The notes below the pieces were generated by a model that saw only the letters and a program-made list of their open reading frames with translations, had not been told where the DNA came from and did not search any database. The translations under genes and the position numbers were made by a program. A stretch of DNA of 64,000 nucleotides from Shigella phage Sf19: sequence record MF327005; one strand, given 5' to 3'. Below are positions 27,994 to 54,475 of the stretch, piece by piece (the stretch's first letter is position 1; every line of letters starts with the position of its first letter).

Positions 27994-29346
27994 ATGTGGA
28001 ATCCAATTGTTAATGTAGATATTACATTGAACACAGCAGGAACTACAAGAGAAGGTTTTGGTTTACCATTATTCCTTGCTTCAACAGATAACTTTGAAGA
28101 AAGAATCCGTGGTTATACTTCATTAACAGAAGTAGCTGAAGACTTTGATGAAAGTACTGCTGCGTATAAAGCTGCAAAACAGCTATGGAGCCAAACTCCA
28201 AAAGTAACTCAACTGTATATTGGTAGAAGAACTATGCAATATACTGTTTCTATTCCTGACACAGTGGCTGAAGGAAGTGAATATTCATTGACAGTTGCTA
28301 TCGGTGGTGGTGTTTCTCAGCCATTCCAATACACTGCAAAAGAAAACGACACAGCACTTATTGTCTTGAATGAGTTTAAATCACAGATTGAAGCAAGCCC
28401 AACAATTAAAGATGGTGTTAATGCTAGTGTAACAGGTACTGGTGCTTCTGCGACGATGATTATTACTAAAGCTGGTGATAATGACTTCGTAAAAGTAACA
28501 TCTATTACACCTACAACGTCTATTGCAGCAACAACTGCTGACACGGCTTCCGCTGCTCTGGCATCCATTGAGACATATTCAACAGATTGGTACTTCATCT
28601 CAGCAGAAGACAGAACTCAACAGTTTGTCTTAGCAATGGCTTCAGAGATTCAGGCTCGTAAGAAGATTTTCTTCACAGCTAATGCTGACGTTAAGGCTCT
28701 GCAAGGCACTGATTTGACCTCTGCAACAGATGTTCCGGCACAGTTAGCTAAGAGCAAGTACACTCGTACAGTTTGCTTGTGGCATCACACAGCCGAGTTT
28801 GACTACCCAGAAATGGCTTACATTGCATATGGTGCTCCATACGATGCAGGTTCAATTGCTTGGGGTAACGCTCAATTAACTGGTGTTGCAGCATCTCTAC
28901 AACCCGCTAACCAGAGACCACTGACAAGCATTCAGAAGTCAGCTTTAGACACTCGTAGCTGTAACTTCATTGACCTCGATGGTGGGGTTCCTGTAGTGCG
29001 TAGAGGTATCACTTCTGGTGGTGAATGGATTGATATTGTACGTGGTGTTGATTGGCTTGAATCTGATTTGAAAACATCTCTGAGAGACTTGCTAATTAAT
29101 CAGAAGGGTGGTAAGATTACTTATGATGATACTGGTATTACCCGTATTCGTCAGGTCATTGAAACATCTCTTCAGCGAGCAGTTAACAGAAACTTTTTGT
29201 CAACTTACACCGTTACTGTTCCTAAAGCCTCACAAGTTGCATTGGCAGATAAGAAAGCACGTATCCTGAAAGACGTTACCTTCCACGGTATTCTTGCAGG
29301 GGCTATCTTGGATGTTGACTTGAAAGGCACAGTGGCTTACGAATAA
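27994..29346 (+). CDS. tail sheath protein
   Basis: 450 aa followed by 148 aa tube-sized gene, chaperones and tape measure. Confidence 0.65.
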   Translation: MWNPIVNVDITLNTAGTTREGFGLPLFLASTDNFEERIRGYTSLTEVAEDFDESTAAYKAAKQLWSQTPKVTQLYIGRRTMQYTVSIPDTVAEGSEYSLTVAIGGGVSQPFQYTAKENDTALIVLNEFKSQIEASPTIKDGVNASVTGTGASATMIITKAGDNDFVKVTSITPTTSIAATTADTASAALASIETYSTDWYFISAEDRTQQFVLAMASEIQARKKIFFTANADVKALQGTDLTSATDVPAQLAKSKYTRTVCLWHHTAEFDYPEMAYIAYGAPYDAGSIAWGNAQLTGVAASLQPANQRPLTSIQKSALDTRSCNFIDLDGGVPVVRRGITSGGEWIDIVRGVDWLESDLKTSLRDLLINQKGGKITYDDTGITRIRQVIETSLQRAVNRNFLSTYTVTVPKASQVALADKKARILKDVTFHGILAGAILDVDLKGTVAYE

Positions 29347-29359
29347 GGAGTAATTAGGA

Positions 29360-29806
29360 ATGGCTATGTATCAGCAATATTCCCCTAAAGATGTAGTTTG
29401 TAGCTGGAATGGCATTGCCATTGAAGGTTTTGCACCAGACTCATTCTTGCGTCTTCAGAGAAACTCTCCACTTGTTACGCAAGTTGTAGGTGCAGGTGGT
29501 CAAGTAGCTCTGACAAGAAATGCAGACAAGACAGGTACGATTGAGATTGAGCTAATGCAGACTTCTCTATCAAACCAGATGCTTTCTGCAATTCAAGCTA
29601 AACAAGATGACATGGAACTTGAAGAAGATATCTCATCTAACTTTGTAATTTACGACCCATCTGGTTCAGTTCTGGCAACAGGTATTAATGCTTGGTTGCA
29701 AGAGCTTCCACAGATTGAGTTAGGTCGTGACCAGAACTCGAAAACTTGGATTTTCGGTTGTGAGAAGTTAGACTACACTTCAACAATCCCTGCGTCAAGC
29801 GTTTAA
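29360..29806 (+). CDS. tail tube protein
   Basis: 148 aa after sheath; strong terminator follows. Confidence 0.6.
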   Translation: MAMYQQYSPKDVVCSWNGIAIEGFAPDSFLRLQRNSPLVTQVVGAGGQVALTRNADKTGTIEIELMQTSLSNQMLSAIQAKQDDMELEEDISSNFVIYDPSGSVLATGINAWLQELPQIELGRDQNSKTWIFGCEKLDYTSTIPASSV

Positions 29807-29820
29807 CAAATCCTAATAAG

Positions 29821-29852
29821 GGGGAGACTGTAAAAGGTCTTCCCCTTTTGTG
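29821..29852 (+). terminator. rho-independent terminator after tail tube gene
   Basis: ggggagac...gtcttcccc hairpin then ttttgtgttttt. Confidence 0.6.
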
Positions 29853-29882
29853 TTTTTATAGCATAACTTTTAAGGAATCACA

Positions 29883-30284
29883 ATGAAGACTGAAACTAAA
29901 ATGATTAACGGCAAGAAGGTAACTATTATTCTTCTTGGAGCAAGAGATGGTATCCGTATCTCTATGAAACTTGGTAAAGCAGTTGTACCAGCATTTGCAC
30001 AGATGTTCTCTGGTTTAACCTCTAAAGATGGGGAAGCTAAAATCCCATTTAAAGAACTCGTTGAAGCTTGCTTTGAAAAGGTTGACGAACTAGATATTGA
30101 TGCAATGGCAGAGACACTATTTCAGGGGGCAACAGTTAATGACTTCCCACTGAAAATTGATAGTTACTTCCAAGCGAACTACGGTGAATTTATTGACTTC
30201 TTAGCTTTTGCTTTGGAGGCAAACTTCGGAAGTTTTTTCGAGGCAAGCATTTTCAAAAGCCTAACTTCTCAGCAGGAAGCTTAA
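29883..30284 (+). CDS. tail assembly chaperone (upstream frame)
   Basis: 133 aa between tube and tape measure; contains T_TTT_TTC slippery site near 3' end. Confidence 0.6.
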   Translation: MKTETKMINGKKVTIILLGARDGIRISMKLGKAVVPAFAQMFSGLTSKDGEAKIPFKELVEACFEKVDELDIDAMAETLFQGATVNDFPLKIDSYFQANYGEFIDFLAFALEANFGSFFEASIFKSLTSQQEA

Positions 30285-30520
30285 GTTATTCTATGCAGAC
30301 CCCGCTGACTGACGGGGCTGTAAAGGCAACTTATGATGAAGCAGATGAGATGAAATTTGTGCTTGCTATTTATGGTATGGATGGGTGTAAAGAAACACTC
30401 AACCAACTTTTTGATATGACCTTCGTTGATTTATTATCTCTACGTCAATATTTAGAAATCCAGAAGTCATATAAAGAAGAAATGGCTTACAACGAACTCA
30501 GAAAAGCAGGTAAAATTTAA
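30197..30520 (+). CDS. tail assembly chaperone frameshift extension (-1 frame)
   Basis: Open -1 frame overlapping 3' end of upstream chaperone, ends at tape measure start. Confidence 0.5.
   Translation, partial: LLSFCFGGKLRKFFRGKHFQKPNFSAGSLSYSMQTPLTDGAVKATYDEADEMKFVLAIYGMDGCKETLNQLFDMTFVDLLSLRQYLEIQKSYKEEMAYNELRKAGKI
30233..30239 (+). other. candidate -1 programmed frameshift site (T TTT TTC)
   Basis: Heptamer in frame of 29883-30284; -1 frame is open from 30197 through 30520. Confidence 0.55.
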
Positions 30521-32756
30521 TGGCACAATATACAGTTGATAGTTTTATTGTTGAACTTGGATTCAGTGAAAAGGTTGTTAAGGGTTTGCAAAGAGTTGAG
30601 AAAATGGCTATGCAGTCTGCTCAACGTATCGAACGCAATATCAATAAAGCCTTTGATGTGAAGCCTAATAGAAGTTCACAAGACGCTCTAAACAGACTTG
30701 TAAAAAACGCTCAGACTGCTTCAGGCAGAATCAATAAATCCCTAAACAATGCTATGAATTTAGATTCACAAGGTGTAAAATCACTTCGTAGATTAGAAAC
30801 ACAGGGTAAGAAAACAGCCAAAGAAATTAATAAGGCTCTAAGACAAGCTATGAATGTTGAAGGTAAAGTCAATGTTCGTGGTGGAGTTGGTAGAGGCCGT
30901 GGTAACACTATCCCTCCGGTTGGAGGTGGTGGTTCACCTAGAGTTAGACCTGATATTGCTCAAAGACAGATGGAAAGAATGTTTAATAACAACTTCTACT
31001 CTGGTTTGACTCGTCGTCTTGAAACAATTGGTGGACAAGGTAACCAAATGGCTACTTCCTTCAGAGGAAGCTTACAAGGAATCTATAATAAGTACAAAGG
31101 TAGTGGTAAAGTTGGTGAGTATGAGATGGAAGTCAAGAAACTCATTGACACTACCAAACGTTGGGTTATTGCAGAAAATGCTAGACTTAAGGCAGTCAGA
31201 GAGTCAGCTTGGTTACAAGACAGAGCAAACTCTTCACTAAGACAGCTTGTAGGTGGTTTTGTTTCAGCGTATGCTATGCTGGAATTAGCTCAGAAGACTA
31301 TTGATGCAGGTGTAAAGAGACAGTCTGCACAGTTAGCCTCAACAGCTATCTTTGGAGGGGATACACAGCAAGCTAGAATGTTCGCTGCTACGTTCTCTCA
31401 CCAGATTGGTCAGAACTACACAGACACTATGAAGCAGTACTCAAACTTCGCTGCTGGTGCTCAACCAGAGTTAGGTTTTAAAGGGACTCAAGAGTTCTAT
31501 AAGAACGCTGCTATGTTCTCACGTATTCGTGGTGCTTCTGATGAAGACTTGAAAGGTATCATGATTGCTTTCCAGCAAATGGCATCTAAAGGTAAGATTC
31601 AGGCTGAAGAACTTCGTGGACAGTTAGGTGACCGTTTAGCAGGTGCTGTTCAGTTATTCTCTGATGCTATTGGTAAAACTCCACAAGAACTTGACAAGAT
31701 GATGAAAGATGGTCAGCTTCTTGCAAAAGACGTTCTACCAAAAGTCTCAGAAAAAATGAGAGAGCTTGTTGAAGCAGCAGGTGGTATGAATGCAGTTTCT
31801 AAGCAGACAGCTACCTCTATGGGCCAAGCAAAGGCAATGTGGGATAACACCCTTGTAGCTTTGTTTAACAACTCTAGCGAAGGTATTTCACAACTCTCTA
31901 ACTCAGTTGCAATGTTCTTGCAAGGTTCCCTTGGTACATCTGAAGCACTTGGTACAGGTATTGGTTACCTTTTAAAAGGTGCTAGTAACCTCCTAGACTT
32001 CGTGACAGATATCATGTACCGCATTTCTTCATTGTACTACACCTCAATGGGTTATTTCAAGGAATTAGATGCTAGTCAACAGAAACTAATCAAGGATTCT
32101 GCTGAGTTGGTTGCTACGTTCACCGCTATTGGTGTTTCAATTGCAGCTATTACAAAAGTCGCTAAAATCTTCGGTGGCACTGTAGCATTTGTCAAGAGTA
32201 TCTTTGAAGAAGGTATCTTAGCTAAGATTGCACAGAAGTTTGGATTAACTACAGCAGCAGAAACAGCAGCTACAACGGCTGGTGTATCAGCAACCAGAAT
32301 GGCTCTTGGTGTAGGTGGTTCTGCATTAATGTTATCTGGTTCAGTTGACAAGAATGCTGGAAAGAGATTTAACGAGGTTAACACACCTAATCCTTTCAAT
32401 GAAGCTATCTCAGGAATCACTAATCCAAAACGTCCAATGTTCTTTGACCAGAATGGACAACTTCAGTTTGCACAATATACCACAGACACTTCTGGAAATA
32501 TTCAGAGAGTTGATAATGGTTTGTCAAATTGGGATATTATCATGAACAATCTGTCTGAGTCTCTAAATAACTTTGCAAACAAGTTTAACCAGACACCTAT
32601 GATGATGACTCCTTCTGGACTACCATTGCAAACTAAGCAGACGCTTAACGTTTCCTTTAATCTGGATGGTAAGCAGATTGCTACTAAGATGGTGGATATC
32701 ACTGATAAGAGTCAGGAAGATATTCTGTTAAACTCTAGCTACCCAGAGGATGAATA

Positions 32757-32757
<1 letters not shown>
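30520..32757 (+). CDS. tail tape measure protein
   Basis: 745 aa, helical repeats in N-terminus, Gly/Ala-rich hydrophobic stretch, downstream of chaperones. Confidence 0.8.
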
Positions 32758-51075: not shown

Positions 51076-53775
51076 TTAGTGAACTTCCAGCCAGCTTTTA
51101 CCAACCTTACCAGCACCAGTTACAAGGGTATCTTTTTTAAGACCTAAGTTCTTAGAAGCTTGCCCGTAGTACCAGTCAGTTACTGCTTTGACTTCTGCTG
51201 TCATGCTCTCTGGACATTCCCAGCTTGTTTCATCGTGGTAAGCACAGAGTAGGCGAGCACCAATAGCTGGTTTACGACCATTCAGTTTCATTAACCCTTC
51301 ATCAATCATACGACGACAAGCAAGGTTGATTGCTTCATTCTGTACTTGTGCTTCTGAACCCATCAACAGATAGTTCAAAAGTTTATGTGGAGATTTACAC
51401 CACAACCAAGCACCAGCAACCTTAACAAAACCACCTTTAGCGATAGCAGCAGTTTTACCAAACACCTCTTCCAGTGCTTTCTTAGTAGCTTTAAAGTCGG
51501 CTTCTAAGTTGTCTAACAGTTTCTTAATCTTCGGCAAACGCACAAAGTAAGTCTGTTTAGTTAATGCACCTTCCTGAGTGGTAGCTGCTTTAATGGTCTT
51601 AGCAAACTTTTCATCACCTGCACCGAACAACAGTGCATAGATACCATTCTTAGCTTTCTTACGACCCTTACTAATTTCGTGAAGAAGATTTTCATCCTGA
51701 GTCATACGACAAGTCAAGATATCCTGCTCATCATTCAAACTAAAGTAGATACTGTTCAGTGTATGAGCATCAGTACCTGAGTAAACTACATACAGGTCAT
51801 TTTCATGGTCATAACGAAGATACTTGTCAACTTCAGGGTTCAAGTATTCATCAAAGTGTTTGCAATAGTAACGACCATCTTCTTGACGAACAAACTCAAT
51901 CTCTTCTTTACCTTCAGTTACAGCCTTTGTGAAATCCTTATCACCCATAAAGTTACAAAGAAGAACAAGCTGTGCAGAGTTCATATCTACAGAGACTACG
52001 TTTGTCCCTTCTTCACAAATCCAAACTGCCCTCATTGGTTCCCCATAAACGGCAGCACCAGAAGGTACGTTTACAATACCATACTGCGTCATACGTCCAG
52101 TAGATGTACCAAACACCATTGCACCAGCACTCAAACGACCATCTGGACGAATCTGGTTCAACCAGCCCTTTTCATCATCTTTTGAGTTCTCAATAGTTCT
52201 ACGTCGGTGCATCAAAGTATAGTACTTCGCAATCTTCTGTCCAAGCTCACCTTCGATTGTATCATAAGAAGATTCTGTAAGCTTTGGTGAAGTCCTAATC
52301 AAGCAAGGCTCAAGCACATCTGTGTACTTCTTAACAGACCAGTTATGCTCGATGTAATAGACACCTTCATGCTCAATATAGTTCAACCCACAACGTTCAA
52401 CCATCTCATCCCACTTAGGATGTTTGCGAATCATCTTTTTGTTATCTTTGAATCTGCAAACCTTAATAGGACGACCATCAGAATCTTTTTTATAGTTCCA
52501 ATCATCAGGAATCCAGCCAACGGATTTTAAGTAATCCTTCACCACAGCTACCTGAGTCATTCGTGAAACTTCAAACTCAATTGGTGTGAATGGTGCATCA
52601 ATCAAACCAGTGTAGCGACTAGACTCTAACTCAAAGTGGTTAACAACGTGAACATTGTAGTACTTCACAGTTTTCACAGTCTTAACTGGCTTCCAATCTT
52701 TACACTTCTTGCCAATCTTCTCATTCAGTTCATTACAAACTGCACGAGCATCTTTCATTGCTACAAAACCTTCAGGGTACTCTTCTTTTGTGACCGTGTT
52801 AGTTGGAGTGTAGCAGTTGCGTTTCTCAACATTAAAAATCTTTGTAGTTGGCTTACCATACGGCTTGATAGGGTACTGCTTCAACTCGCCTTCACGCATC
52901 TGTTCACGATACTTTGTCTTAGGGTACTTGGTAATCCTTTTTAAACCGTCAACGTGACCAAATGTATCTACATACTCATTCCAAGACTTGGCAAATTCTT
53001 CACCTGTGACTTTACCTTTTGTCTTAATAGTTGGTGGAAGGTGTGGTTCAACCTCAGCAGCCAACTCATTAGTTAACTTGTCAAGCTCTTTAACGTGGAA
53101 CTGCATAAGCTCTACATCAGCTTTCCAACCGTTGATAGCTTGCTGACTCATCCAGAAAGATGTTTCTTTAGCTCGCATGTAGGTTTCATAAGTGTCAACA
53201 CCACACTTCTTAAGCTTGAGGTACTCATTATCAAGAGCACGTTTAGTTTTGGCGTTAATCTTAATATCTTCTACAACACGAGTAAGAATCTCTGCATTCC
53301 AGACACCCCACTCTTCAATCTCTGGTTTACGGACACCTACACGAGCACCCCATGCAGCCAAACCATGAGCACCTTTGTAACCTTTTGGTGTAGGTCTATC
53401 CATCCACTGTACGCGAGATTGGATAAGTGAATCCTGAAAGAAGTCACCCCAAGGCTTACACTTAGGATTCTCAAAGTTCCACAGGTCAGGTGCAATGTGA
53501 TTAAACACCCACCAGTCATAACCAAGACCATTATGGATACAAAGACGTTTAGCTTTCAGTGCAAACTCAACCCCTTCACGCAGACCACCTTTGATGTACT
53601 TCGTGTACTTGTGACCAAGGATAGGCTCATCAGTGAACACCCACACAGCAGGTTCGTCACTGTCATCTTTATAGTCTGCGAAAGCCATTACGTGTGCTTT
53701 TGTAAACTCAAGGAGCAACCCATCAGTTTCTGTATCACCAACCAAATGTAATTTTTCGAAATCTACATTGTCCAT
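51076..53775 (-). CDS. DNA polymerase, family A, with 3'-5' exonuclease domain
   Basis: 899 aa; Exo I VGDTETDGL; motif B RKKAKNGIYALLFGAG; motif C YHDE. Confidence 0.9.
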   Translation of the reverse strand: MDNVDFEKLHLVGDTETDGLLLEFTKAHVMAFADYKDDSDEPAVWVFTDEPILGHKYTKYIKGGLREGVEFALKAKRLCIHNGLGYDWWVFNHIAPDLWNFENPKCKPWGDFFQDSLIQSRVQWMDRPTPKGYKGAHGLAAWGARVGVRKPEIEEWGVWNAEILTRVVEDIKINAKTKRALDNEYLKLKKCGVDTYETYMRAKETSFWMSQQAINGWKADVELMQFHVKELDKLTNELAAEVEPHLPPTIKTKGKVTGEEFAKSWNEYVDTFGHVDGLKRITKYPKTKYREQMREGELKQYPIKPYGKPTTKIFNVEKRNCYTPTNTVTKEEYPEGFVAMKDARAVCNELNEKIGKKCKDWKPVKTVKTVKYYNVHVVNHFELESSRYTGLIDAPFTPIEFEVSRMTQVAVVKDYLKSVGWIPDDWNYKKDSDGRPIKVCRFKDNKKMIRKHPKWDEMVERCGLNYIEHEGVYYIEHNWSVKKYTDVLEPCLIRTSPKLTESSYDTIEGELGQKIAKYYTLMHRRRTIENSKDDEKGWLNQIRPDGRLSAGAMVFGTSTGRMTQYGIVNVPSGAAVYGEPMRAVWICEEGTNVVSVDMNSAQLVLLCNFMGDKDFTKAVTEGKEEIEFVRQEDGRYYCKHFDEYLNPEVDKYLRYDHENDLYVVYSGTDAHTLNSIYFSLNDEQDILTCRMTQDENLLHEISKGRKKAKNGIYALLFGAGDEKFAKTIKAATTQEGALTKQTYFVRLPKIKKLLDNLEADFKATKKALEEVFGKTAAIAKGGFVKVAGAWLWCKSPHKLLNYLLMGSEAQVQNEAINLACRRMIDEGLMKLNGRKPAIGARLLCAYHDETSWECPESMTAEVKAVTDWYYGQASKNLGLKKDTLVTGAGKVGKSWLEVH

Positions 53776-54034: not shown

Positions 54035-54475
54035 ATGCAGAGGATGTACGTTCACCCAGATATCAATAACCTTGTCCAAGCTTTAGAAAGAGTTGAAGCA
54101 CTTTACATCGAGGCTCAGAAGGAGTATGCTTATCAACATCGTCGAATGGTTGATGTTCAGCATGAGATAGAACTATCAAGTGGATACGACGAAGGTTTAA
54201 AGTGCTCGGTATTTGAGCACATGAAAGAGATATCTTCAGAAAGACGTAAAGCGAAAGACACAATCTTTTTGATAGATACCTTAAAAAATAAGTTGCAAAA
54301 TGGAACGGACTTAGATAGTCTATCCCAACTGCTTCAGGATGCAGAGAATACATGGGACAGAAATTACTTCCCACGGTCTGAAAAAGGACTTGACTTCTCT
54401 TCACAAGAAAGCTTAAGATTGTCACGACTTACTATTAACAAAATGAGAGAGATTAAAGATGAAAACTGTAAATGA
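54035..54475 (+). CDS. hypothetical protein
   Basis: 146 aa, first gene after divergent AT-rich region. Confidence 0.5.
   Translation: MQRMYVHPDINNLVQALERVEALYIEAQKEYAYQHRRMVDVQHEIELSSGYDEGLKCSVFEHMKEISSERRKAKDTIFLIDTLKNKLQNGTDLDSLSQLLQDAENTWDRNYFPRSEKGLDFSSQESLRLSRLTINKMREIKDENCK

Follow-up and report, generated by a model that had tools for sequence, protein, structure and literature searches.

Do the two small ORFs between the tail tube and tape measure genes of this phage represent two genes, or one tail assembly chaperone gene that is read in two frames? We addressed this in a 64,000 nucleotide stretch of DNA from Shigella phage Sf19 (sequence record MF327005), here called the window. 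By nucleotide identity, the window belongs to a Moogle-like Shigella/Citrobacter phage related to Felix O1, within the genus Mooglevirus of the Ounavirinae. Positions 29360-30900 are 99.7% identical to Shigella phages Sf18 and KPS64. Citrobacter phage Moogle shows 94% nucleotide identity over the locus, and the slippery heptamer and its flanks are identical in the two phages.

Gene order between the sheath and tape measure genes

The following features were assigned in the window.
27994 to 29346, plus strand: sheath gene (PHROG 205, E 6e-118)
29360 to 29806, plus strand: tail tube gene, 148 aa (Pfam PF11681 KPP10_Orf10, 2.5e-7; PHROG 280)
29883 to 30284, plus strand: short chaperone TAC-N, 133 aa, the zero-frame product (PF21822 Phage_TAC_15; PHROG 1613)
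30293 to 30520, plus strand: ORF of 75 aa, annotated separately in Shigella phages and homologous to Sf14 gp42
30520 to 32757, plus strand: tape measure gene, 745 aa (Pfam PF20155 TMP_3, 3.2e-16; PHROG 4036, E = 0)

The gene order is sheath, tube, chaperone, -1 ORF, tape measure and a Dit-like protein, with two overlapping ORFs between the tube and tape measure genes. The upstream ORF of this pair belongs to a tail assembly chaperone protein family. Its product, TAC-N, matches Pfam PF21822 Phage_TAC_15 with an E value of 7.5e-20 (72.2 bits, cut-off 22) and PHROG 1613, tail assembly chaperone, with 1.8e-48; PHROG 3840 was matched too. The homologue of the tube gene in phage Sf14, gp40, is the tail tube according to cryo-EM (PMC11821841).

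The gap between the tube and chaperone genes holds a terminator-like hairpin (29818-29857; 12 pairs, 6 of them G-C) followed by a T-run, and a rho-independent terminator is annotated at the matching position in phage wV8. Termination here would leave the chaperone and tape measure genes less transcribed than sheath and tube. At the other end of the locus, the stop codon of the -1 ORF overlaps the ATG of the tape measure gene in the sequence TAATG (30518-30522). The overlap is kept in Mooglevirus and Felixounavirus and is not found in more distant relatives. It raises the possibility that the end of the fusion, or of the 75-aa ORF, is coupled to initiation of the tape measure gene.

The slippery site and its conservation

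The features that bear on a frameshift are as follows.
30233 to 30239, plus strand: slippery heptamer T_TTT_TTC, in the X_XXY_YYZ phase of TAC-N
30239 to 30520, plus strand: C-terminal extension in the -1 frame, 93 aa and TAA (PHROG 4963 tail assembly chaperone, 1.4e-51)
29883 to 30239 joined to 30239 to 30520, plus strand: predicted fusion TAC-NC, 212 aa, by translation across a -1 slip

The original prediction placed T_TTT_TTC at 30233-30239, in frame near the 3' end of ORF 29883-30284, and both the sequence and its phase proved correct. The zero-frame codons are AGT (30231-33), TTT (30234-36) and TTC (30237-39), followed by GAG, which puts the heptamer in the X_XXY_YYZ phase. The TTC is codon 119 of 133 and is followed by 14 sense codons and the stop codon TAA (30282-84). 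An open -1 frame between 30197 and the tape measure start at 30520 had also been claimed, and we found this frame to be bounded by TGA at 30194-96 and TAA at 30518-20. The second ORF is in the -1 frame relative to the first, and T_TTT_TTC is the sole in-phase X_XXY_YYZ heptamer within their 88-nt overlap.

Other slip sites in the overlap were considered and discarded, there being no second in-phase heptamer. An in-phase T_TTC tetramer at 30251-54 was set aside as well, since tetramers alone are barely shifty. The +1 frame as an alternative is closed after 9 codons.

The -1 extension carries a conserved 'T' domain of approximately 60 aa (...vY...cKEtL..L..Mt..dfl...). In the predicted fusion, ...EANFGSFF is followed across the slip by RGKHFQKPNFSAGSLSYSMQTPLTDG and the protein ends in ...KAGKI, the junction being ...GSFF/RGKHF... 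The predicted junction peptide of the 212-aa fusion is IDSYFQANYGEFIDFLAFALEANFGSFFR, and HFQKPNFSAGSLSYSMQTPLTDGAVK is the predicted -1 frame peptide encoded upstream of Met-30293. A sequence search gave no solved structures with relevant similarity to the fusion.

We suggest that the Mooglevirus tail assembly chaperone gene very probably undergoes a programmed -1 ribosomal frameshift that yields the 212-aa fusion. In brief, most ribosomes would read 29883-30284 and stop, producing the short chaperone of 133 aa. A small fraction would slip one base back on U_UUU_UUC, with tRNA-Phe on UUU in the P site and on UUC in the A site, and both tRNA-Phe could re-pair with UUU in the -1 frame. After the slip, translation would resume with CGA at 30239 and continue to the TAA at 30518-20, giving the fusion with the 'T' domain. 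If the chaperones act as in lambda (G/GT) and P2 (E/E+E'), the N-terminal part common to both forms may coat the tape measure protein and the rare C-terminal domain may recruit the tube protein, the ratio of the two forms being set by the frequency of slipping.

The heptamer is a measured shifter in E. coli, in which all-pyrimidine heptamers are favoured and only one A-site tetramer is more shift-prone than U_UU.C (PMC4066793). The -1 frequency of U_UUU_UUC was 0.121% without a stimulator, 0.893% with the Shine-Dalgarno (SD) sequence and stem-loop of IS911, and 7.58% with the IS3 pseudoknot (PMC4066793 supplement). Given this range, the sequence context should matter. With the bare heptamer at approximately 0.1% and no conserved canonical downstream structure, the level of frameshifting is uncertain; our literature search found neither a junction peptide nor a reporter measurement for this phage group.

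Two properties of the window set the site apart from the background. Firstly, T_TTT_TTC is followed by 93 open -1 codons, which is unmatched among the 54 in-phase X_XXY_YYZ heptamers that ORFs of 100 aa or more contain in the window. The runners-up, with 50 and 41 open -1 codons, lie in minus strand ORFs that are doubtfully real; all others have 0-24, mostly below 15. The two minus strand sites are A_AAG_GGC at 52171 (50 open codons) and T_TTT_TTA at 54288 (41 open codons), the latter in an ORF that overlaps a plus strand ORF; both probably arose by chance. Secondly, TTTTTTC occurs 9 times in the window against an expected 25.9 +/- 4.9, an approximately three-fold under-representation. Phe codons are about evenly split in the window (262 TTT, 239 TTC), and 16 of 18 Phe-Phe dipeptides in plus strand ORFs of at least 100 aa start with TTC. 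Among these 18 dipeptides, the chaperone site alone is encoded as T_TTT_TTY, reading T_TTT_TTC. The rarity of TTTTTTC together with this codon choice indicates that the genome avoids the motif except at the chaperone site, consistent with a genome-wide avoidance of slippery T runs.

The original prediction had further likened the site to the conserved chaperone frameshift between tube and tape measure genes. The locus, the conservation of site and frame, the annotation of phage Moogle and published papers all bear this out. An in-phase T_TTT_TTC or T_TTT_TTT with an open -1 frame is present in 58 of 59 sources, down to approximately 28% protein identity, and is conserved across Mooglevirus, Felixounavirus, Kolesnikvirus, Pectobacterium phage Arno18 and metagenomic relatives. 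At the homologous ...NF(G/S)SFF... position, phages Moogle, pEC-M719-6WT.1, Felix O1, wV8, BPS15Q2, phiEa104 and Arno18 all have TTTTTTC in phase 0, and in each the -1 frame runs to near the tape measure gene. Protein identity is down to 45% in Erwinia phage phiEa104 and 49% in Arno18.

Scanning IMG/VR with the chaperone alignment gave 49 loci. All except one keep the in-phase heptamer (48/49), with 56-91 further -1 codons past the stop; the exception, L058 (25% identity), has a T5 run only, C_CTT_TTT. Moogle, Felix O1, wV8, phiEa104 and Arno18 likewise have 56-91 open codons beyond the stop. Of the two patterns used in the search, one (NF[GS]SFFE) is biased towards Phe-Phe at the slip site but leaves the codon choice free; T_TTT_TTT is nevertheless present in the loci outside this pattern (L042, L046, L048, L055 and L056). 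The Phe codons of the heptamer are preceded by AGT, TCT or ACT, invariably with a final T, and the first of them is TTT without exception. The invariant T-ending codon and the choice of TTT indicate that the constraint acts on nucleotides rather than amino acids. Some distant loci match Alteromonas phage PT11-V22 at 69%, from which the chaperone arrangement extends to marine myophages.

Two database records of this region deserve comment. GenBank GU169904.1, 'Staphylococcus phage SA1', contains a Felix O1-like chaperone locus at 74366-74749 and looks like a mixed or mislabelled assembly. The record of a close relative of the window, Shigella phage SFPB (OQ031072.1, our locus L003), divides the sheath gene between two CDS, gives the short chaperone the name 'tape measure protein' and starts the tape measure gene 84 nt further downstream. 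These oddities are probably annotation or sequencing problems.

The relatives also bear on the alternative that the locus holds two separate genes. In that case translation of the 75-aa ORF 30293-30520 would begin at its own ATG, through either a weak SD or reinitiation, and the heptamer would be incidental. Two CDS are indeed annotated in most GenBank records, and an ATG lies 2-8 nt past the stop in Mooglevirus and most Felixounavirus (8 nt in the window). However, the SD of the ATG at 30293 is weak (-4.3 kcal/mol), and many lineages, among them Kolesnikvirus, Arno18, L039 and all distant clades, have no ATG, GTG or TTG 5' of the conserved domain. The equivalent of this ATG is absent from Kolesnikvirus, Arno18, L039, L031 and distant clades; the Felixounavirus locus L031 has ATA where its relatives have ATG. 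In phiEa104, L041, L046, L055 and L057 the first start comes only at residue 56-81 of the extension. The -1 frame, on the other hand, runs from the heptamer past the stop without interruption or loss of register in all lineages. Between the slip site and the 'T' domain, lengths differ by multiples of three (3 or 6 nt), and the 'T' domain stays aligned in 32 unique relatives. Slip site and frame relation are thus conserved and an independent start of the second ORF is not, and the nucleotides of the heptamer are conserved against the codon-pair preference of the genome itself.

Separate genes gain some support from mass spectrometry of purified Sf14 particles, in which gp42, the downstream ORF, was detected and gp41, the upstream ORF, was not; the published table gives neither quantities nor a junction peptide (PMC11821841). 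Sf14 gp41 and gp42 correspond to 29883-30284 and 30293-30520 of the window, respectively, and the data are deposited at MassIVE as MSV000096931. The detection of gp42 in virions means that the -1 frame is translated. Finding gp42 without gp41 is not predicted by a pure fusion, and in silico digestion gives several good tryptic peptides in both chaperone halves. Weighing these points, we consider two separate genes with an incidental heptamer highly improbable as an explanation of the locus. Independent initiation in addition to the fusion in Mooglevirus, which does not exclude a frameshift, is unlikely.

Candidate stimulators and the nature of the slip

Upstream of the slippery site we found one candidate stimulator.
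30215 to 30219, plus strand: SD-like GGAGG, putative frameshift stimulator, 13 nt 5' of the heptamer

The predicted duplex of this GGAGG with the 3' end of 16S rRNA has an energy of -9.3 kcal/mol, and the background probability of such SD-like pairing is 0.013 for any 14-position window. A stimulatory SD acts at a spacing of 6-17 nt in E. coli, as determined by experiment (Sharma et al., PMC4066793), and the 13 nt found here fall within this range. By the criteria of the same study, with 14 nt to the second base, the GGAGG fits SD-stimulated -1 signals of the dnaX and IS911 type. Among 32 unique relatives, 25 have an SD-like element 10-12 nt upstream of the heptamer, and it occurs in four codon contexts: LEA (GGAGGC), KEN (AAGGAGA), REN (GGGAGA) and EVN (GGAGGUG). 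The remaining seven comprise six NFSSFF lineages (Kolesnikvirus, L039, L052, L054 and L057) and L055 (NFQTFF), and the heptamer is retained in the Kolesnikvirus-type lineages. In L039 the LEAN residues are unchanged, but a GAA codon is used and no SD-like element results. Stimulation of the slip by the upstream GGAGG is suggested by this pattern; since the sequences are related, the conservation is suggestive rather than proof.

The SD-like element also bears on how the frame is changed. RNA polymerase could add one U on the T6 run, and such transcriptional slippage would give the same ...SFFRGKHF... fusion. As the protein would be identical, neither annotation nor mass spectrometry can separate the ribosomal and transcriptional mechanisms. 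Some relatives have a longer run, T7, and U7 and A7 runs are avoided in all frames of E. coli genes, which Sharma et al. ascribe partly to transcriptional slippage. However, bacterial transcriptional slippage is associated with runs of 9 A or T (Atkins review, PMC5009743), and the run is six T in the window and at most seven in its relatives. An SD-like element kept at a ribosome-relevant distance in four codon contexts is explained only by a ribosomal mechanism. U_UUU_UUC is in addition a measured ribosomal shifter, with an output that rises approximately 60-fold when an RNA pseudoknot is added. We therefore regard transcriptional slippage as very unlikely and favour a slip of the ribosome.

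The original prediction had called for a search for a downstream stimulatory structure. Here we found nothing conserved, and one weak long-range candidate.
30243 to 30366, plus strand: candidate long branched hairpin, 124 nt (dG -38.0 kcal/mol)

Local structures were rejected. Folds of 47-101 nt after the heptamer gave z scores of +0.9 to -1.7, which does not point to a local hairpin or pseudoknot as a conserved element, and the 70-nt folds had z scores of about 0 in all Ounavirinae (36 unique relatives folded). No consensus fold was conserved among 11 Ounavirinae, for which RNAalifold gave -0.1 kcal/mol and neither covariation nor compensatory pairs. A GC-rich hairpin at 30296-30322 was dismissed as a stimulator, since 57 nt separate its start from the site and Felix O1 does not keep it.

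The candidate branched hairpin has its first pair at the 4th base after the motif and agrees with the liberal published rules. Its outer helix pairs 30242-30255 with 30351-30367 (14 bp), closing a loop of approximately 95 nt. The arm duplex has an energy of -19.1 kcal/mol and a z score of -2.8 against shuffled sequences; for the whole region holding the branched hairpin the z score is only -1.6. Both arms are invariant in 32 unique sequences, so that the outer helix shows no covariation. The pairing is absent in Kolesnikvirus although the 5' block is identical there. That the Felix O1/Moogle frameshift departs from lambda both in an unusual pair of stimulators, GGAGG and the long-range 14-bp helix, and in a 'T' polypeptide that in Mooglevirus is virion-bound or made by itself, as the Sf14 particle data would suggest, we hold to be distinctly unlikely.

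Synonymous change is very scarce in a patch of approximately 66 nt at 30332-30397, within the single-coding part of the -1 ORF. Across 32 unique Felix/Moogle-type sequences, variation is seen in 5 of its 20 degenerate codons, whereas the figure for the rest of the domain is approximately 60%. This patch includes the 3' arm of the candidate long-range helix.

Different downstream sequences are seen in distant relatives. The IMG/VR loci L042, L046, L048 and L056, which resemble Alteromonas phage PT11-V22, have T_TTT_TTT instead, and a hairpin is predicted 2-6 nt after their heptamer (z -1.9 to -2.8), unlike in the window. The stems of these hairpins differ within the group, GGG/CCC as against ACG/CGU. 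Strong downstream hairpins were found in L053 and L057 as well.

Relation to known chaperone frameshifts

The frameshift is already known and published for this genus; the observation is correct and not new. Moogle, Mijalis and Michonne are of the same genus and have the same locus with an annotated tape measure chaperone -1 frameshift. The GenBank record of Moogle has a two-piece joined CDS over the same span (CPT_Moogle67/68), and our predicted Moogle fusion is an exact match to the deposited protein of 212 aa, AIW03804.1 / YP_009145710.1. Entries of 212 aa are deposited for Michonne and Mijalis too; the fusions of the window and of Felix O1 are not among the deposited proteins. A -1 frameshift in the tape measure chaperone of the Moogle group has been described (PMC4319497), and the announcement of the Michonne genome states a -1 frameshift, citing Xu et al. 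2004 (PMC4591319). Unlike Moogle, phages of the Shigella Sf13-Sf18 type are deposited as two CDS only, and the annotation of Moogle itself was made from sequence.

An alignment of 231 Andersonviridae phages revealed a conserved GTTTTT close to the 3' end of TAC-N, presumed to be a -1 site (PMC12846349, 2025). In that paper, on Pseudomonas phage Adele, the GTTTTT motif of Andersonviridae/Vandenendeviridae is the same poly-T site with an uninterrupted -1 frame. No stimulators are reported there, whereas in most lineages we found an SD-like element upstream, and in the Ounavirinae no conserved downstream hairpin.

A parallel in organization is E/E+E' of phage P2, likewise a contractile-tail phage, in which the two chaperone genes also lie between tube and tape measure and a T6 run is the slip site (PMC3091744). 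The same paper, citing Christie 2002 and Xu 2004, gives the P2 slip site as T_TTT_TTG with no downstream hairpin. The A-site codon is UUG (Leu) in P2 and UUC (Phe) in the window. The frameshift of P2 has been demonstrated experimentally, whereas that of the window is predicted from sequence. None of our searches recovered P2 E as a sequence relative.

Phage lambda G/GT occupies the same gene position and keeps a fixed ratio of a short and an extended chaperone, but lambda is a siphophage and its heptamer, G_GGA_AAG, is different. The -1 frameshift of lambda G/GT was reportedly described by Levin in 1993 and by Xu, Hendrix and Duda in 2004, 2013 and 2014. Neither chaperone product of lambda is found in virions, whereas the product of the downstream frame is listed as detected in Sf14. 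By the lambda rule, the presence of gp42 in Sf14 particles is also unexpected. Of the two parts of the lambda chaperone, G is the one that binds the tape measure protein, and T binds the tube protein (PMC5009743).

E. coli dnaX and IS911 have an internal SD-like sequence 10-14 nt 5' of the heptamer, as does the window. The SD spacing in dnaX was reportedly established by Larsen et al. in 1994. Both dnaX and IS911 also have a proven 3' stem-loop, and in signals of this type a conserved stem-loop or pseudoknot would begin 4-10 nt past the motif; none is conserved in the window, where the role of the SD-like element is putative.

Chaperone frameshifting as a phenomenon has been known since 1993-2004. 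What is added here is the SD-like GGAGG, the lack of a conserved downstream hairpin and the asymmetry in the Sf14 mass spectrometry.

The records of Sf13-Sf18, KPS64 and most Felixounavirus show two small genes at this locus, which should be annotated as a short CDS and a joined frameshift CDS. A corrected annotation matters for therapy-candidate phages and for the interpretation of virion proteomics. For the phages themselves, the frameshift would set the ratio of the two chaperone forms, which in lambda is needed for correct tail assembly.
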